Shown here: piece by piece, positions 4,322-16,656 of the stretch
How the letters are laid out: every line of letters starts with the position of its first letter
Numbering within the stretch: the first letter of the stretch is position 1
Assembly (NCBI GenBank): GCA_038208905.1
Contig: JBBQYG010000083.1
Span: 1 to 16,726 of the forward strand
Reading direction: 5' to 3'
Length of the DNA stretch: 16,726 nt
From: Candidatus Sumerlaeia bacterium
Lineage (GTDB): Bacteria; Sumerlaeota; Sumerlaeia; SLMS01
Translations under genes and position numbers: made by a program
The notes under the pieces: model-generated
What the model saw: only the letters and a program-made list of their open reading frames with translations
Told to the model about the DNA's origin: nothing
Databases searched by the model: none

Positions 4322-6304
<1,983 letters not shown>

Positions 6305-6318
6305 GGCGCGCTCGCGCC

Positions 6319-7449
6319 TCAGCCGCCCTTGAACAAGTGGTCGGTCAGCCAGCCCTCGATCAGCCAATCCCGCCCGAATGCTTGAAGGGTGGGATTGGAC
6401 AGATCGAGGGCTTGCGACATTTCGGCATTCGGAGTCGGAAGCGCGATGGGACCGAGGGCGGCGGGCCCGCCGCCGGCAAGCCGCGGGGCGATCCACGCCT
6501 CCACGCGATCAACGAGGCCCGCCTCCAGAAACGATCCCGCCACCGCGCGGCCACCCTCCACCGTGAGGGACTGAATTTCGCGCGCGCGGAGATGAAACAT
6601 CACGTCGGCCAGCGACACGCCGCGCGGCCCGCGGGCGACGCGGAGGACCTCGGCGCCGGCCCGGCGGAGCGGCTCCTCCAGATCGACGCGAGCATCATCG
6701 CAGCAAATAACCAGAGCCGGGCTGTCGCCACCCTCGGTTAGAAACCGCGCATCGGGGGTGAGGCGCAGGGCGCTATCGAGAACGATGCGCACCAGAGGCG
6801 GACCCGCCGGATTGTCAACGCGCGCGGTCAGGCGAGCGTCATCGCGCAGCACGGTCTCGATGCCGGCCAGCACCGCGTCCTGGGTCGAGCGGCGGCGGTG
6901 GACCTCTGCGCGGGCCTCTTCCGCGGTGATCCATTTCGAGTCGCCGCCGGGCACCGCCGTGCAGCCGTCCAGCGTCATCGCCCACTTCAGCGTGACCAGC
7001 GGCCTGCCGAGCCCGTGAAAGGTGACGAAGGCGGGATTGATCAAGGCCGCCTCCACGCCGCGGAGCCCCACCTGCACGGACACGCCGGCCGCCTGCAGTA
7101 TCTCCACGCCGCCACGGGCCGCCGCATGGGGATCGCGCATCGCCACCACCGCTCGCGCGATGCCGGCGGCGATCAGGGCCTCGCTGCATGGGCCCGTGCG
7201 GCCTTGGTGATTGCAGGGTTCCAGCGTGACGTACATGGTGGCGCCGCGCACGTCGCGGCCCGCCTGGCTGGCATCGCGGAGCGCATCGATCTCCGCGTGG
7301 GGCTGACCGGCGCGGCGGTGAAAGCCTTCGCCGAGGATGTCGCCCCCAGCGGACACGATCACCGCGCCCACGCACGGATTCGGCCGCGTGAGTCCCTGCG
7401 CGCGCGCGGCCAGTTCCAGCGCGCGGCCCATCAGTTCATGGGGTGTCAT
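6319..7449 (-). CDS. ribD: Bifunctional diaminohydroxyphosphoribosylaminopyrimidine deaminase / 5-amino-6-(5-phosphoribosylamino)uracil reductase
   Basis: Deaminase motifs PNPCVGAV, HAE and YVTLEPCNHQGRTGPC. Reductase motifs LKWAMTLDG, SKWIT, VEGG and LVDRV. Confidence 0.97.
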   Translation of the reverse strand: MTPHELMGRALELAARAQGLTRPNPCVGAVIVSAGGDILGEGFHRRAGQPHAEIDALRDASQAGRDVRGATMYVTLEPCNHQGRTGPCSEALIAAGIARAVVAMRDPHAAARGGVEILQAAGVSVQVGLRGVEAALINPAFVTFHGLGRPLVTLKWAMTLDGCTAVPGGDSKWITAEEARAEVHRRRSTQDAVLAGIETVLRDDARLTARVDNPAGPPLVRIVLDSALRLTPDARFLTEGGDSPALVICCDDARVDLEEPLRRAGAEVLRVARGPRGVSLADVMFHLRAREIQSLTVEGGRAVAGSFLEAGLVDRVEAWIAPRLAGGGPAALGPIALPTPNAEMSQALDLSNPTLQAFGRDWLIEGWLTDHLFKGG

Positions 7450-7477
7450 CGGATGGAGGAGGGGAACAACGGCGATT

Positions 7478-7980
<503 letters not shown>

Positions 7981-8020
7981 GAAAAGAACGGATGACCGAC
8001 CGGGCCAAGGCGGCCCATCG

Positions 8021-8071
8021 CCTGCCCTTCCCTGTCGTTCACTGCCGTTTCCCTGCCTTTCCCTGCCGTTA
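8021..8071. repeat. Tandem array of five imperfect 10-mers (consensus CCTGCCGTTC)
   Basis: cctgcccttc / cctgtcgttc / actgccgttt / c / cctgcctttc / cctgccgtta; the last unit overlaps the Hsp70 stop codon. Confidence 0.8.
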
Positions 8072-9826
8072 CGCTCCCGCTTCGATCTCCGTCATCACGC
8101 GGAGCACATCGTCGATGATGTCGTTGATGGCTTCCTCGTCGCCGGCTTCGATGGCGTTGCGGAGCTGGGTGGTCTGGGTCTTGAGGTCGCGCGTCATCGG
8201 ATGGGCGCCGGAGACGGCCATGACGGACTCGGCGCGTTCGATGATATTGCGGGCCTCGTCGCTGCGGGATTCCTTGATGCGGTCCTGCAGCATCTTGGTC
8301 ACGCGCTCGCGGGCTTCCTTGATCATGCGGTGCTTCTCGGGATCGCTCAGGCGGCTGTCTGTGGCCTGGATGGTGACGGCCTTCTCGACGCCGGTGGCAA
8401 GGTCCTCCGCGCGCACCTCCAGGATGCGGTCCGGGTTGAGGCGGAACGTCACCTCGATGCGCGGCACGCCGCGGGGCGCGGGGGTGATGCCCTCGATGCG
8501 GAGCAGGTCGAGGAAGGTGTTCTCCGAGGCGACGTTGCTTTCGCCCTCGTAGATCGGGAAGCTTATGGCCTCTTGGAAGTCGCGCGTCGTGGTGAAGATG
8601 TCCTTGGCCTCGGTGGGATACGTCGAGTTGCGCTCGATGATCGTTCCCATCTGGTCGTTCTGCAGGCCAACGCCGAGGGAGAACGGCGTCATGTGGATGA
8701 TGACGGGGCGATCCTTCCCTTGGTAGCGCGTGGCGTAGCTATCAGCGAGGTCGCCCTCCAGCGGGGCGAGCACGATGGTCTGCACCGCGGCGCCCATCGC
8801 CACGACTTCCTCGGGGGAAATGTCGCGGTGGGCGTTGCGGCCGCTGAACTCGCGGACGATGCGCTGCACCATCGGGATGCGCGTGGAACCACCGACCAGG
8901 AGCACATTGGTGATCTCGCCGACGGGCATCCCGGCGTCCTTGAGGGCGGCATCCATGGGGCCGCGCGTCGCCTGGACCAGGTCGCCGATCAGTTCCTCGA
9001 ACTTCTCCCGCGTCAGCACGTGGTCCAAGGTCATGGGACCCTTCTGCGTCATGGTGATCGCCTCGACGAGGATGTGGGTCTCCTTGAGTTCGGAGAGCTC
9101 GATCTTCGCCTCTTCCGCCGCTTCGCGCAGGCGCTGCTTGGCGATTGGGTCCTCGGTCAGGTCCACGCCAGTCTCGTTCTTGAAGACACTTATCAGGTAT
9201 TCGACGATGCGCCTGTCGAAGTCGTCGCCGCCCAGGCTGGTGTTGCCGCTGATGGCGCGGACCTGGAAGACGCCGGAAAGAATCTCGATGATGCTGACGT
9301 CGAACGTGCCGCCGCCAAGATCGTACACCAGGAGGATCTGGTCCTCGTCCTTGTCGAGGCCATAGGCGAGCGCCGCGGCGGTGGGCTCGTCGATGACGCG
9401 GCGGACGGTGAGGCCGGCGATCTCCCCGGCGTCCTTGGTGGCCGCGCGCTGGGTCTCGGTAAAGTAGGCGGGCACGGTGATCACCGCCTGGGTGATCTCC
9501 TCGCCAAAGTAGTCCTGAGTATCCTGCCGCAGCTTCTGCAGGATCATCGCGCTGATTTCCTGGGGCGTGAACTCCTTCCCCTCGATGCGGACGCGGTGGT
9601 TGGTGCCCATGTGGCGCTTGATGCTGAAGACCGTGCGGCCCACGTTCATGATGGCGCCGCGCTTGGCCTTCTTGCCGACGAGGATATCACCGGACTTGGT
9701 GAAGCCGACGACGGATGGAGTGAGCCGCTCCCCCAGGCTGTTGGGAACGATGAAGGGGCCGTTCTTCTCCATGACGGAGACCACCGAGTTGGTGGTGCCG
9801 AGGTCGATTCCGATGATCCTGCCCAT
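8069..9826 (-). CDS. Hsp70/DnaK-family chaperone, divergent paralogue (585 aa)
   Basis: GIDLGTTNS, TPSVV, SIKR, TVPAYF, EPTAAALAYG, YDLGGGTFDVS, LGGDDFD, AKIELS, LVGGSTRIP, TPFSLG and APRGVPRIEVTF. RBS AGGAGA at 9837-9842 (-). Linker and substrate-binding residues are non-canonical, so it is probably not the housekeeping dnaK. Confidence 0.96.
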   Translation of the reverse strand: MGRIIGIDLGTTNSVVSVMEKNGPFIVPNSLGERLTPSVVGFTKSGDILVGKKAKRGAIMNVGRTVFSIKRHMGTNHRVRIEGKEFTPQEISAMILQKLRQDTQDYFGEEITQAVITVPAYFTETQRAATKDAGEIAGLTVRRVIDEPTAAALAYGLDKDEDQILLVYDLGGGTFDVSIIEILSGVFQVRAISGNTSLGGDDFDRRIVEYLISVFKNETGVDLTEDPIAKQRLREAAEEAKIELSELKETHILVEAITMTQKGPMTLDHVLTREKFEELIGDLVQATRGPMDAALKDAGMPVGEITNVLLVGGSTRIPMVQRIVREFSGRNAHRDISPEEVVAMGAAVQTIVLAPLEGDLADSYATRYQGKDRPVIIHMTPFSLGVGLQNDQMGTIIERNSTYPTEAKDIFTTTRDFQEAISFPIYEGESNVASENTFLDLLRIEGITPAPRGVPRIEVTFRLNPDRILEVRAEDLATGVEKAVTIQATDSRLSDPEKHRMIKEARERVTKMLQDRIKESRSDEARNIIERAESVMAVSGAHPMTRDLKTQTTQLRNAIEAGDEEAINDIIDDVLRVMTEIEAGA

Positions 9827-9847
9827 GGCTCGTGAGTCTCCTGTAGG

Positions 9848-10414
9848 TTATTGAGCGACGACCACTTTGGCGTCCCTCACCAATTTGCCGCGAAAGAAAT
9901 ATCCGCGTTGCTGCTCCCGGACAATGGTATTCGGCGCGAATTCGCCGCGCGGCACCAGCGCCGTGACATCGTGCAACTCAAAGTCCACCTCGCAGCCCAC
10001 CGACGTGATCGGCACAAGGCCGATGCCCTCCAGCGTCCTGAGCAGGCGCACCCGGAGCGCGGAAACTGTCGCCATCCAATTGGCGAACGTCTCGTCCTTC
10101 TGGGCCACGCTCTCTCCAAACTCCACGATCCGGTCCAAGGCGTCAAGAGAGGGTAGCATCGATTTGGCGATCTGGCGGATTTCCGCCTCGGAGGAGCCGG
10201 TCGCCGCGCCCGGGGCGACCCGGGGGGCATCCGCCGCCCGCCGCCGCTCCGCCGCCGCCTTCAACGAATCCACCTGGCGATTCAACTCCGCCAGCACCGC
10301 CGTCACCGCGCCCGCAAGGTCCACCTCCGGCGCCAACTCCGTCTGCACCGGCAGCCGCTCCGCCGTGGGATCGAAGGTTCCCTTCCACATCCAGCGGTTC
10401 AGGGCGGCAAGCAT
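9848..10414 (-). CDS. GrpE-like nucleotide exchange factor (divergent)
   Basis: MLPSLDALDR (cf. LLPVLDNLER), long helices, then GCEVDFELHDV and IVREQQRGYFFRGKLVRDAKVVV (cf. GExFDPxxHEA and QKGY..RxLRPAxVxV). Lies 21 bp upstream of the Hsp70 gene. Confidence 0.9.
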   Translation of the reverse strand: MLAALNRWMWKGTFDPTAERLPVQTELAPEVDLAGAVTAVLAELNRQVDSLKAAAERRRAADAPRVAPGAATGSSEAEIRQIAKSMLPSLDALDRIVEFGESVAQKDETFANWMATVSALRVRLLRTLEGIGLVPITSVGCEVDFELHDVTALVPRGEFAPNTIVREQQRGYFFRGKLVRDAKVVVAQ

Positions 10415-10424
10415 TGGCGGGGCC

Positions 10425-11864
10425 TTATCGCTTCATTCTCAGGTCGGTGATCGCCTTCTTGGCCACCTGGTTCTTGGGATCGAGCGTCAGCACCTGCTGG
10501 TACTCCGCCAGTGCGCTGCGCACGTCGCCCTTCATGTCATAGGTGGCGGCGATCTCCAGGTGCACCTCGGCGCTTTTGGGCATCAGCGCCAGGAGCTGCT
10601 TGAAGTGAACCAGCGCCTGGGTGAAGATGCCCTTGGACCGGAAAGCCTTCCCCATGTTCAGGTGCGCCTTCACCAGGTGCTCCCGCGTGGTGGGGTTCTT
10701 GGGATCGATGGACATGCTGCGTTTCCAGCAGTTGAACGCCTCGTCCTTTTGCCCGCTGTTGAGCATCGCCCAGCCCAGCAGGTTCCACACGTCGGTATTC
10801 TTGGGGTGCTTGCGGGTGAGGATTTGCAGTTCCTCGCGGGCCTCGGCGAAGAGCTTCTCCTCCATCAACTTGTTGCAGAGCTGGAAGTGGGCGTCGAAGT
10901 CGTCGGGGTTTAGCTTCACGATGTCCCGGTTGCGTTCGATGCTGGCCGAGGCCGTTGGCGGCGCGGGCGGGCCGGAGGCGGCGAGCTTGGGCACCGCCGT
11001 GGAGGATCCACCCGTCGGGCGGGGCGCCGGCGGACCGAGCTTGGGCACCGCCGCGGAGGAGGCCACCGGCACGGGCTGGGACACGCGCACCTGGGCCGCC
11101 GAGCGGCGCGGCGCCGAGGCGATCAGGTCGGAGATGTCCTCCTGGTGGCCAAGCGCCTCCGTCAGCAGAAACCGCATGTAGTCGTTCGTGGGGTCGCGCT
11201 CGAGCTGGCGCTTCCACCGGGCCATGACTTCCTCCCAGTAGCGCACAGTGCGCACGGAATCGCGGCAGCGCTCTGAAAGGATCGCAAGGTTGTGGATGAT
11301 CTCCGTGCTGTCGGGGTCCATCTTGAGCGCCCGCTCCAGCAGCTCGATCGCCTCCTCGTTCAGGCCATGCAGCGCATAGGAAATCCCGAGGTTCGAGCAA
11401 GCGAGTTCGAGGTTGTGGCGCGCCCGCGCGTGGGAGGGCTCGTGCTCGAGCACCTCGGACCAATCGCGGATCGCCTCGCCCAGCAGCTTGCGCGTGACCA
11501 GATAGTGGGCCCGGGAAAACAGCACGCGCAGCAGGGCGGACTTCAGGTCGTCGTTCATGATGTGCGCCAGATAATCCCGACGCACCTTGTTGACCATCTC
11601 GTCGTCGGGCGGTTCCGGATCGCGCCACTTCTCGTCCTCCTGAAACAGGTACTCGCCCTGGGCCATGTTGAAGGAAAGGATGTCTTCCTTGGCGCGCGAC
11701 TTCACCTGCCGCAGGCGGTCATAGGCCTGCTGGATGACCATGAAGCGCTCTGTATGCTTTTCCGGGTCGTACTTCTTGACCAGATTGACGTAGGCCGCCT
11801 TGACCTCTTTCTCCGTGGAACTCTTGGGGATTCCAAGGATGGCGTAGGCGCTGTTCTCGATCAT
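10425..11864 (-). CDS. J-domain (HPD replaced by DPE) plus two TPR blocks separated by a Pro/Ala/Ser-rich linker (479 aa)
   Basis: MIENSAYAILGIPKSSTEKEVKAAYVNLVKKYDPEK...FMVIQQAYDRL aligns without gaps to the DnaJ N-terminus. TPR-like units include EAIELLERALKMDPDS, EAFNCWKRSMSIDPKN and ALAEYQQVLTLDPKN. Start placed at 11864 by J-domain register. Confidence 0.9.
   Translation of the reverse strand: MIENSAYAILGIPKSSTEKEVKAAYVNLVKKYDPEKHTERFMVIQQAYDRLRQVKSRAKEDILSFNMAQGEYLFQEDEKWRDPEPPDDEMVNKVRRDYLAHIMNDDLKSALLRVLFSRAHYLVTRKLLGEAIRDWSEVLEHEPSHARARHNLELACSNLGISYALHGLNEEAIELLERALKMDPDSTEIIHNLAILSERCRDSVRTVRYWEEVMARWKRQLERDPTNDYMRFLLTEALGHQEDISDLIASAPRRSAAQVRVSQPVPVASSAAVPKLGPPAPRPTGGSSTAVPKLAASGPPAPPTASASIERNRDIVKLNPDDFDAHFQLCNKLMEEKLFAEAREELQILTRKHPKNTDVWNLLGWAMLNSGQKDEAFNCWKRSMSIDPKNPTTREHLVKAHLNMGKAFRSKGIFTQALVHFKQLLALMPKSAEVHLEIAATYDMKGDVRSALAEYQQVLTLDPKNQVAKKAITDLRMKR
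10982..11060. repeat. 25-bp intragenic direct repeat (period 54 bp) encoding SS(A/T)AVPKL twice
   Basis: cgagcttgggcaccgccgtggagga (10982-11006) and cgagcttgggcaccgccgcggagga (11036-11060), one mismatch. Confidence 0.9.
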
Positions 11865-12047
11865 GGAATCTATCCGGTCTTCTGGTCGCTGGCTGGGGGA
11901 GGCGCCGAAGCCCTCCCGATGGACCCGGGCTGGGGCCCCGATAGGGAGAACGGGGGCGAGGCCAGCATGACTCCGTCCCCTCTGGTGTCGAGTAAAGGCC
12001 ACCCTCCGCACAGAGCAAGGAAAAACCCGGTGGCAGGGAACGGCGCG

Positions 12048-14958: not shown

Positions 14959-16656
14959 TCAACCCGACCCATCGCCGCCGCGCCGCTCGCGAATCAGGGC
15001 CTGGGCCCGATCCACATTCCCTTGCGCGATGCCGCGATAGTATTCCAACCCCGGCTGGGTGAACACCTCCAGCGCCGCGCGATAGGCCGCCACCGCCTCC
15101 TCCAGCCTCGCCGTCCCGCTCTCCCGCCCGCCGAGGGTCGCGAGGGCGTTGCCGAGGTTGTTCTGCGTCATCGCCCAGTCGAGGGGAACGCGCTCGCGAG
15201 GATACTCCTTCAAGATGCTATTCAGAAGGGCGATCTCTTCCTCGAGCGCTTCGTTGTCCCCCTTATCTACTCCTTGGTTGTGCAATGCGTCCGCCGCGCG
15301 TTGGCGATAAGTTCGGGCCGCTGTGGGGTCATGCTCGGACATCAGCTTGAAGGCCTCGCCGAAGAGATTGGCTGCCTCCCGGTATGCCCATCGGAGGAGC
15401 GCCGCCTCGGCGCGCGTGGCGCGGATATCGGCAGCATCTCGATCTTGGCGATTAAGCTCCTCGCGCAGCAGCAGCCGCGACTCGTCCACCTTCTGTTGAA
15501 CACCAATCAGGAGTCGTTCCGCCTCAACAAGTCGCCCTTCCGTGAGCGCCGCTCGGGCGAGCCGCAACACCTCGCCAGCCTCGCGGGAAAAGAGTCCCAA
15601 CCTCGCAAGCCGCTCTTCTAGTACTTTGTATCGCGTGGCGAATTCCGTGAGTTTCTCCGGCCATTTCTCGAAGGACACCTCATCACCCTTCAACTGGACA
15701 AGACAGGCACCGATGGCCCCTTTCGCGATTCCCAGTTCTAGGCTAAGTTTCTCGTTTCTCGCTGTTACGTCTGGGAGAATTGCGAGTATGAGGCCCAGCT
15801 TTCCCTTGATATCCCCGATTCCGGACTCCATCCGGTCGAGCTGCGGTTTCATATCACTGATACTGCGCTCCAGAAGTAGAATCCCGGAGTCCAGTCCCGC
15901 TAGATGACACTTCAACTCCTTGCGTGTGACACCAACGGCGTGGAGGAGTACGTGTTGGCCTTGCTCCGCCTCGCCCTGAATCTGACGCAGCACCGCAAGC
16001 GTGGTCTTCTGTCCGCCCAGAATCTCCTCCGTCGCGCTAAGCTGGAAGGCGCGCATCTTCACTTCGTCGTGCTCGAGGACCTGCTTGAAGTCATGCACGA
16101 ACCAGCGGGGAAGTTCGCGGACGACATAGTCCCGGATGGAGTCGCGGTAGGAGAGATAGCCGAGTCCGGCCTCGTCGATGATGGCATCGGCGAGTTCCCG
16201 CCATGCTTCCTCCGAGAAGATGGCATCGCCCTCTCGCGCGGCGACGAGGAGGAGCGGCAGGTGGGGCTCCGAGGCAGCGGCGAACCCAGTGAGTTCCGCC
16301 GCTGCGATGCGCTTCCACACGCGCATCGCGGCCGGGCCGAGGCTATCGAGCTTGGCCGCCTCGTCGGGAAACTTTTCCTTCAGCCGCATCGTGAAGAAGA
16401 GCTCCATCGACTCGCCGACGGCGGCGACCAGATCCTCGCTGCGGAGCACGTTCTCTGCCTGGGGCGAGCGAGTGATCCGCTTATCGATCTCGCTGGCGAT
16501 GAGGTTGCCCGCGATACCTGCGCCGGCGCGAATGACCTCAAGAGCGAGTGCCGCACCACTCGCGACGCCCGCAGGCGTAGCGATCAAGGCCCCAATGGCA
16601 ATGCTCGCCCCCATGGTGACCAGTGATCCGGCGCAGATGCAGAAGTTTCGATTCAT
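14959..16656 (-). CDS. Hypothetical protein: unknown N-terminal domain, coiled coil and C-terminal TPR region of the RERVPLDWAMTQNNLG type (565 aa)
   Basis: The C-terminal GDNEALEE..RERVPLDWAMTQNNLGNALATLGGRESGTARLEEAVAAYRAALE is a recognisable TPR-type repeat. The central region is heptad-rich and the N-terminus is Gly/Ala-rich and hydrophobic. Alternative start at 16614. Confidence 0.85.
   Translation of the reverse strand: MNRNFCICAGSLVTMGASIAIGALIATPAGVASGAALALEVIRAGAGIAGNLIASEIDKRITRSPQAENVLRSEDLVAAVGESMELFFTMRLKEKFPDEAAKLDSLGPAAMRVWKRIAAAELTGFAAASEPHLPLLLVAAREGDAIFSEEAWRELADAIIDEAGLGYLSYRDSIRDYVVRELPRWFVHDFKQVLEHDEVKMRAFQLSATEEILGGQKTTLAVLRQIQGEAEQGQHVLLHAVGVTRKELKCHLAGLDSGILLLERSISDMKPQLDRMESGIGDIKGKLGLILAILPDVTARNEKLSLELGIAKGAIGACLVQLKGDEVSFEKWPEKLTEFATRYKVLEERLARLGLFSREAGEVLRLARAALTEGRLVEAERLLIGVQQKVDESRLLLREELNRQDRDAADIRATRAEAALLRWAYREAANLFGEAFKLMSEHDPTAARTYRQRAADALHNQGVDKGDNEALEEEIALLNSILKEYPRERVPLDWAMTQNNLGNALATLGGRESGTARLEEAVAAYRAALEVFTQPGLEYYRGIAQGNVDRAQALIRERRGGDGSG

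Follow-up and report, generated by a model that had tools for sequence, protein, structure and literature searches.

Dedicated Hsp70 systems that exist beside the canonical DnaK/DnaJ/GrpE set are a known kind of bacterial chaperone machinery, with HscC–DjlB/DjlC, HscA–HscB, and the MxDnaK2 operon of Myxococcus xanthus as the described examples closest to the locus presented here. This locus is a module of three genes—for a J-domain co-chaperone with tetratricopeptide repeats (TPRs), a GrpE-like protein, and an Hsp70 paralogue—on the contig JBBQYG010000083.1 of a Candidatus Sumerlaeia bacterium (assembly GCA_038208905.1). The whole contig of 16,726 nucleotides was analyzed and is called the window in the following; it belongs to a 4.24 Mb Sumerlaeota draft genome, which is 93.9% complete and whose contigs bear C-numbers, the window being C83. 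The co-chaperone is referred to as J-TPR and the Hsp70 as Hsp70-S. With a probability of roughly 0.6, we read the module as a dedicated Hsp70 system that has been passed on vertically, occurs almost throughout the phylum Sumerlaeota, would work in parallel to canonical DnaK/DnaJ/GrpE, and has a J-protein–Hsp70 interface that appears to be reshaped on both sides. The kind is hence known; unusual are the phylum-fixed non-HPD motif of the J domain, the seemingly matching changes in the Hsp70, and the presumably private exchange factor.

HscC is likewise a specialized Hsp70 of shortened length with private J partners, which carry HPE instead of HPD, and shares with Hsp70-S a lobe I deletion in the nucleotide-binding domain (E. 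coli DnaK 76–101; PMC8215388 and our alignment). It is not stimulated by DnaJ, CbpA, or HscB (PMC8215388). However, HscC uses no exchange factor and has lost the contacts to GrpE (PMC8215388), whereas the module has a GrpE-like gene within its operon. HscC also keeps D393 and N170 (E. coli DnaK numbering, used throughout for Hsp70 unless stated otherwise), and its partner keeps His33, where the partner of Hsp70-S reads DPE. In grouping, in the lack of an exchange factor, and in the HPE partner, Hsp70-S thus departs from HscC. HscA–HscB is a dedicated bacterial Hsp70/J pair as well, of which HscA needs no exchange factor (PMC8215388); the genome analyzed here encodes an HscA-like (C77) and an HscB-like protein (C134) separately from the module. 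MxDnaK2 (MXAN_6672–MXAN_6671) is likewise a second Hsp70 that shares an operon with a GrpE gene of its own, located immediately upstream; heat does not induce MxDnaK2, and its clients tend to be membrane proteins (PMC11019930). In contrast to Hsp70-S, its linker is almost identical to that of MxDnaK1, and the accessible part of that paper reports neither a non-HPD J gene nor a J-TPR gene in the operon.

On the side of the co-chaperone, type IV J proteins such as Pam16 and DNAJB13 retain the J fold with a non-conservatively replaced HPD (PMC13254874), and by this definition J-TPR with its predicted J domain is a type IV J protein. Those proteins are eukaryotic, and none is described as co-encoded with a matching Hsp70, whereas the motif of the module is fixed in a phylum and lies in an Hsp70 operon. 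TPRs and a J domain are combined in one co-chaperone in DNAJC7 (TPR2) and DNAJC3 (p58IPK) (PMC13254874). These bear the TPRs first and the J domain last; J-TPR is bacterial and has its J domain, with DPE, at the N terminus. The J motif of DNAJC7 and DNAJC3 is HPD. Our search for literature linking Sumerlaeota with Hsp70 found none, the Sumerlaeota genome papers contain no mention of DnaK, Hsp70, or GrpE, and the module is undescribed in the J-protein and Hsp70-paralogue literature searched, while bacterial J-protein surveys might still list such proteins.

The module and its parts are located in the window as follows:

10425..11864, minus strand: gene of the J-TPR co-chaperone, 479 amino acids, with an N-terminal J-like domain, TPR block 1, a disordered Pro/Ala/Ser linker, and TPR block 2 (open reading frame list, Pfam, homologues, AlphaFold2 model)
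11676..11864, minus strand: J-like domain, residues 1–63, with the loop after the motif 6 residues shorter (Pfam DnaJ, alignment to E. coli DnaJ)
11760..11768, minus strand: codons of D33-P34-E35, which replace HPD (alignment of 142 distinct J domains)
11115..11603, minus strand: TPR block 1, residues 88–250 (Pfam, AlphaFold2 model)
10953..11114, minus strand: low-complexity linker, residues 251–304, of varying length among homologues (proteins of 425–531 amino acids; low model confidence at 262–293)
10431..10952, minus strand: TPR block 2, residues 305–478 (Pfam, AlphaFold2 model)
9848..10414, minus strand: gene of the GrpE-like nucleotide exchange factor, 188 amino acids (Pfam GrpE)
8069..9826, minus strand: gene of Hsp70-S, 585 amino acids, an Hsp70 paralogue whose lid is short and which lacks an acidic tail (Pfam, trees, alignments)
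8708..8767, minus strand: clade-specific insertion of about 12 residues ahead of the interdomain linker, at about residues 354–373 (alignment)
8690..8707, minus strand: interdomain linker P374-V-I-I-H378-M379, which replaces VLLLDV; H378 corresponds to D393 of E. coli DnaK (alignment)
11865..12047, minus strand: 183-nt region 5′ of the J-TPR start, after pdxA, in which no consensus promoter, CIRCE, or HAIR was found

A preliminary description of this DNA had drawn three co-oriented genes with gaps of 10 and 21 bp and intact frames, and open reading frames and DNA agree with it: J-TPR, the GrpE-like gene, and Hsp70-S follow one another on the minus strand with intergenic gaps of 10 nt and then 21 nt, the latter—between the GrpE-like gene and Hsp70-S—containing AGGAG. 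The J-TPR frame extends further as a GTG open reading frame (10425..12011, minus strand), within which the in-frame ATG at 11864 gives the protein of 479 amino acids. As a start, this ATG fits the N termini of 120 homologues.

The J loop and its probable docking surface on the Hsp70

Profile and fold both identify the N terminus of J-TPR as a J domain. Pfam DnaJ matches residues 6–59 (1.9e-11, 44.3 bits against a cut-off of 27.8), beside many TPR families further on, and the AlphaFold2 model (predicted local distance difference test score, pLDDT, of 89.3) places the J-domain helices at 18–31 and 38–52 and the TPR helices at 88–250 and 305–478, with pLDDT below 50 in the linker at 262–293. Pfam detects no DnaJ C-terminal or zinc-finger family in J-TPR, which sets it apart from class A and B DnaJ proteins; the two TPR blocks that the preliminary description had seen in place of a G/F-rich or zinc-finger region are present in both Pfam and the model. 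A fold search with the model returned generic TPR superhelices only (such as OGT, SPY, and APC/C), and the J region gave J-domain leads only in the ESM Atlas, all below 0.9.

The J motif KKYDPEKH aligns with KYHPD of E. coli DnaJ such that D33-P34-E35 corresponds to H33-P34-D35 column for column; the DPE itself had been read from the window beforehand. HPD, the motif of functional class A–C proteins, occurs in none of the 142 distinct J domains aligned. Instead, position 33 is D in 140 of them (N and P once each), position 34 is P in 141, position 35 is E in all 142, and position 37 is H in 141. Three lysines of DnaJ are replaced in most sequences: position 26 is V in 115, I in 19, and F in 7, position 48 is M in 130, and position 51 is Q in 129. 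Positions 39–44 are deleted, and the aromatic residues at position 25 (Y or F) and position 47 (F) are kept. The deepest J-TPR branch, formed by the loci L057 and L064 (genes at 6001–7287 and 6001–7302), has HPPE at the site of the [YF]DPE of the other branches, with D instead of H37 and K/I/R instead of R46/M48/Q51, and its Hsp70 already bears a VVH linker. HPPE may be an intermediate between HPD and DPE, and since it is the deepest branch that carries it, the DPE domain is suggested to descend from an ordinary HPD domain. Among about 280,000 J proteins surveyed, HPE was found in about 1%; sequences without a full HPD were set aside in that survey, the accessible part of which does not mention DPE (PMC10410713). 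For the rare replacements of HPD, called enigmatic in the review literature, both accident and selection have been considered as the origin (PMC13254874).

Hsp70-S belongs to the Hsp70 family by a full-length profile match (Pfam HSP70, PF00012: 4.6e-176, 587 bits against a cut-off of 20.6) and at the same time stays below the equivalog cut-offs for DnaK (NF001413, 643.8 against 648; TIGR02350, 622.3 against 822.55) and for HscA (TIGR01991, 444.7 against 708.55); an HscC profile did not appear in the NCBIfam output for Hsp70-S. Its best alignments are to Gram-positive-type DnaK structures, and it lacks E. coli residues 79–103, as do HscC and many non-proteobacterial DnaKs (PMC8215388). For a residue-level comparison, 47 members of the Hsp70-S clade were set against seven references: E. 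coli DnaK, HscA, and HscC as well as C109, C170, C43, and C77 of the same genome. All 47 members keep D8, K70, R71, R151, R167, E171, T173, D194, T199, D201, N415, T417, Q433, and D481. All 47 likewise carry N170D, D393H, E402G, G406D, Q442E, and G482R, each at a site invariant in the references, and L397F, A429T, and I438F. E217 has become Q in 39 and R in 8 members, V389 has become P in 41 and M in 6, L391 has become I in 35 and V in 12, and L392 has become I in 39 and V in 8; D477 is R or K in 45, and D479 is N, T, or S in 46. The linker of the window protein thus reads PVIIHM and not the VLLLD of DnaK-type proteins, with His at the place of D393 throughout the clade. The substrate-binding domain, in contrast, is the best-conserved part of Hsp70-S, with identities of 67–90%. 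A changed docking surface next to retained ATPase residues, which the preliminary description had proposed from one protein, is therefore a property of the clade.

Several of these positions belong to the contact surface known from canonical systems. In simulations on the DnaK–DnaJ crystal structure, H33 contacts L391 of the linker and D35 contacts R167; altogether, the J domain touches R167, E217, L391, and L392 with its residues D35, K26, Y25, H33, and F47 (PMC13012618). D393 of the linker and D481 each form an ion pair with R167, for which the Asp of HPD is their competitor (PMC7289447). In the module, R167 and D481 are kept, D393 is His, E217 and K26 of the J side are both uncharged, and the His of HPD is Asp. 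These residues agree with an interface that was rewritten on the J side and the Hsp70 side alike, without proving it.

The third partner, the GrpE-like protein, is recognized by Pfam GrpE (PF01025; 3e-19, 69.7 bits against a cut-off of 25.8, residues 38–188) and lies below every NCBIfam GrpE cut-off (best 46.3 against at least 137). It keeps the motif LLPxLDxxDR, a version of FDP..H.A (G..VD...H.V), and the GY..G..lRdAkVvV end, while the motif of the N-terminal helix (AEmENlRRR in E. coli) is lost and marks the region of largest divergence. The emphasis that had been placed on a changed GrpE β-domain is hence only partly right: the protein is divergent, mainly in its N-terminal helix, and most C-terminal GrpE motifs are kept.

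Conservation in Sumerlaeota and a frequent fourth gene

A profile search finds the J-TPR gene in 72 of 75 phylum genomes—including 43/43 of high quality—and in all 18 families, almost always as a single copy. From one genome per species, 63 loci were fetched, and exclusion of four TPR-only chance matches (L070–L073) left 59 J-TPR loci. The order J-TPR, GrpE-like, Hsp70 on one strand is found in 42 of them. All five tested genomes with an unlinked J-TPR gene bear an S-type Hsp70 elsewhere (best-match identity 63–70%; in G079 as two partial frames only, with 63% and 57% identity), and in three of the four such loci with upstream sequence, a GrpE-like gene directly precedes this Hsp70. Compared with the window proteins, median identity amounts to 73% in the Hsp70, 41% in J-TPR, and 39% in the GrpE-like protein. 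Those homologues of J-TPR and Hsp70-S that bear a name stem from Candidatus Sumerlaeota (BRC1) assemblies and are annotated only generically, as “molecular chaperone DnaK,” “Hsp70 family protein,” or “tetratricopeptide repeat protein.” The assembly G047 holds two complete three-gene modules on separate contigs (L013, L014); their Hsp70s, both 84% identical to that of the window, cluster as sisters and reflect either a recent duplication or two binned strains.

The S-type Hsp70s form a clade of their own. In a careful tree of 43 rows, for which 12 S-type sequences were chosen out of 47 and 24 library representatives out of 148, all 12 S-type rows are monophyletic at 100/99; in a quick tree of 78 rows, which kept those 52 of the 148 representatives with 560–665 amino acids and a normal N terminus, all 19 are monophyletic with a Shimodaira–Hasegawa-like approximate likelihood ratio (SH-aLRT) of 99. 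The clade falls outside the group of E. coli DnaK and C109 and outside the HscA group in both trees, and in neither does it join E. coli HscC, whose own placement on a long branch is unsure. Among 1.84 billion representatives, three rows make up the clade: one of full length (897 bits, 70% identity) and two fragments. The full-length rows that come next reach at most 507 bits and at most 55% identity. Of the best 150 rows, 60 have a linker recognized by a strict pattern, with Asp at the D393 place in 55, Glu in 2, and His in 3—these 3 being the S-type rows. The sister row P0299 (584 amino acids, 43% identity) has a VAVPR linker and a long, different insertion in addition to R167A and N170D. 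On a short metagenome contig (L088:225–1665), a close relative of P0299 is preceded by a 127-amino-acid open reading frame resembling the GrpE C terminus, which suggests that more such GrpE/Hsp70 pairs may exist. A second short metagenome locus considered for this lineage, L089, turned out to be unrelated, being a tandem of Hsp70 genes.

The genome holds a canonical set besides the module. Five full-length Hsp70 genes (Hsp70-S, C109, C77, C170, C43), three GrpE genes including the GrpE-like one, and seven J-domain matches were found, and the six J proteins other than J-TPR all read HPD; Hsp70-S is therefore not the only Hsp70. C109 is a DnaK of 633 amino acids that groups with E. coli DnaK, C26 encodes a class A DnaJ with zinc finger, and C1 encodes a class B protein with G/F region that adjoins a GrpE. 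C77 joins E. coli HscA in the tree (100/100); the HscB-like J gene of C134 (HPD) lies on a different contig. C170 and C43 are further paralogues with the normal linkers LLLLDV and VTLLDV. The C43 paralogue (about 21000–24750, locus L003) is a fusion of 1253 amino acids: the Hsp70 nucleotide-binding and β domain at its N terminus is connected, through a long stretch of low complexity and then TPR-like helices, to a C terminus that resembles a Ser/Thr protein kinase and in which HRDIKPxN and DFG are visible. Of the checks on which the preliminary description had made its case depend, those on conserved motif and gene order, on the Hsp70 branch, and on canonical dnaK, dnaJ, and grpE elsewhere came out in its favor. 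So did its remark on host-like codon usage: the GC content at third codon positions (GC3) is 0.83–0.90 in the three module genes and 0.82–0.91 in the contig neighbors speA, ribD, pdxA, and glnA. We read the module as a core gene set and not as a mobile or defense island.

In 18 of the 47 Hsp70-bearing loci, Hsp70-S is directly followed by a fourth gene on the same strand (e.g., L057:9718–11400 and L055:8494–10206). It encodes a protein of about 530–670 amino acids that begins with a four-cysteine zinc ribbon, continues with a TPR pair and a single membrane helix, and ends in a long helical or TPR tail. Since the 18 loci include the deepest branches, the ancestral operon probably contained this zinc-ribbon-TPR gene already. 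A search with the N-terminal part finds it in 62 of 75 phylum genomes (39 of 43 of high quality); the copy of the genome analyzed here lies outside the window on C16 (27059–28903), where nothing telling was seen among the neighbors, which were viewed without a Pfam scan. Within the family f3, the gene is present in 5/5 genomes of the genera g12, g13, g14, and g17 and, in this one query, in 0/6 genomes of g11, g15, and g16—exactly those genera whose loci are without the GrpE-like gene. In line with this, two GrpE genes instead of three are found in four of five genomes of g11, g15, and g16 (G040 has two and a fragment), and three in four of five sister genomes (G041 gives four matches). As the GrpE-less loci are interspersed with GrpE-bearing ones on the Hsp70 tree and the forks are weak, one to three joint losses of both genes would explain the pattern. 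The joint absence is a lead to a functional link and no proof of one, and the zinc-ribbon-TPR protein is the best candidate for a partner or client of the module. Such a possible membrane link recalls the membrane-anchored DjlB/DjlC of HscC (PMC8215388) and also MxDnaK2 with its membrane-protein clients and operon-encoded GrpE (PMC11019930).

Proposed mechanism and competing explanations

In the mechanism that we propose, Hsp70-S would use a working ATPase and substrate-binding domain to hydrolyze ATP and hold a client, and its own GrpE-type factor would reset it. J-TPR would select or deliver this client via its TPR blocks and act on Hsp70-S via the reshaped J loop. The J domain would still dock at the junction of nucleotide-binding domain, linker, and substrate-binding domain—through an interface altered on the J side (H33D, D35E, K26 to a hydrophobic residue, K48M, K51Q, shortened loop) as well as on the Hsp70 side (D393H, L391/L392 to I/V, E217Q/R, N170D, D477R/K). 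The TPR blocks would bind a specific client or partner, most readily the zinc-ribbon-TPR single-pass membrane protein, which itself hints at action at the inner membrane face. The changes on both sides of the interface suggest that J-TPR and Hsp70-S are probably private to each other. The earlier idea of a self-contained module fits the canonical genes elsewhere in the genome, the conserved DPE and gene order, and the clade-wide Hsp70 changes; the earlier interpretation, taken as a whole, is partly supported.

Several points weigh against a dedicated system with a doubly reshaped interface. The pairings of K26 with E217 and of K48/K51 with D477/D479 are our own inference from charge; helix III is the part of the J domain that contacts D477/D479. 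For Hsp70-S, a shallow alignment yielded an AlphaFold2 model (pLDDT 61.8) that was too poor to be used. In 5 of the 59 loci, J-TPR is followed by Hsp70 directly with no GrpE-like gene between, and 12 have neither partner beside J-TPR—two of them owing to a contig end, so that the genes are truly unlinked in about ten. Kin are furthermore not independent, and one ancestral event would explain most of the counts. His378 and Asp146 (Hsp70-S numbering) are already present in the deepest lineages L057 and L064 with their HPPE motif; His378 thus predates the DPE form, and the changes of the two sides were not strictly simultaneous. Last, H33Q and D35N abolish stimulation in canonical systems, and only HPE is known as tolerated (PMC13254874), for which reason the DPE domain may be inactive.

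This last point leads to the strongest competing explanation, which we regard as unlikely though by no means negligible: the J-like domain might be a pseudo-J (type IV) domain that has ceased to trigger ATP hydrolysis. In that case, J-TPR would serve as scaffold, adaptor, or brake, in the way Pam16 acts on Pam18, and Hsp70-S would be driven by its substrate alone or by an HPD J protein, of which the genome offers six, including those on C192, C45, and C25. HPN and QPD do kill stimulation, with HPE alone being tolerated, and Pam16 (DKE/DKS) inhibits its partner (PMC13254874); in simulations, H33A retains binding and blocks activation (PMC13012618). However, D-P-E-x-H shows no decay and is fixed in 140–142 of 142 sequences across the phylum, which argues for a selected function at the DPE loop. 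In addition, the Hsp70 is altered exactly where the HPD loop acts (D393, L391/L392, E217, N170) with R167 and D481 unchanged, the contact residues Y25 and F47 of the J domain are kept, and J-TPR and Hsp70 are linked in an operon in 47 of 59 loci.

It is improbable, in turn, that Hsp70-S is an Hsp110-like helper of canonical DnaK without clients of its own. Prokaryotic DnaK paralogues with altered linkers have been proposed as DnaK co-chaperones that lack J activation (PMC13580251), and the linker of Hsp70-S is altered. Yet with V-I-I this linker has remained hydrophobic, the complete substrate-binding domain is better conserved than the rest, and an own exchange factor and J-like protein would be needless for a mere exchange factor of DnaK. 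A mobile stress or anti-phage island acquired by the genome—suggested solely by the preliminary description with its phage or stress target, and by the TPR proteins of some defense systems together with two weak PADLOC TPR matches (E ~1e-4)—is most unlikely because the module is near-universal and almost always single-copy, forms a single well-supported Hsp70 clade, has the GC3 of its housekeeping neighbors, obtains no PADLOC defense family for Hsp70-S or the GrpE-like protein, and sits among flanking genes that vary between loci with no mobile-element signature seen.

Beyond a dedicated system as such, we tentatively raise a further-reaching possibility, to which we give somewhat less than an even chance: Hsp70-S might represent a fourth, undescribed prokaryotic Hsp70 class beside DnaK, HscA, and HscC, in which the HPD key and the Hsp70 lock (D393, E217, N170) were rewritten together, and which works as an orthogonal pair at the membrane with the zinc-ribbon-TPR protein. 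In any case, the module is a natural test case for joint change of the Hsp70/J contact surface, accessible to a swap experiment with four or five purified proteins. Should the pair be active and private, it would show how Hsp70 networks can be insulated, provide a natural template for orthogonal chaperone pairs, and add a new class with its own exchange factor to the DnaK/HscA/HscC scheme. It would also weigh against the view that all altered-linker bacterial DnaK derivatives have escaped control by J proteins.

Surroundings of the module in the window

Neighbors of the module on the contig are, by Pfam, speA, ribD, pdxA, and glnA; pdxA and ribD are not conserved beside it in any other locus. 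The heat-shock operators were sought with strings that we take to be the CIRCE and HAIR consensus. The window contains no CIRCE match at up to three mismatches and a single HAIR-like match with three mismatches, which lies inside the Hsp70-S gene (9083–9103) and is equaled in 49 of 200 shuffles—chance level, so that the lack of either operator upstream of the module, as described before, still stands. The promoter scan gave no promoter-like site, the terminator scan gave two terminator-like sites and thus fewer than in shuffles, and Rfam matched no family anywhere in the window.

Two further stretches of the window are to be mentioned. Between the Hsp70-S stop and the ribD start, 620 bp (7450–8068) hold no convincing gene and no Rfam match; ahead of ribD, Rfam finds no flavin mononucleotide (FMN) riboswitch, and a terminator-like hairpin is located at 8007–7993 on the minus strand. 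At 14959–16656 on the minus strand, an open reading frame of 565 amino acids matches no Pfam, NCBIfam, or PADLOC family and has a GC3 of 0.74, below that of its neighbors. The C-terminal part of its product appears TPR-like by eye.

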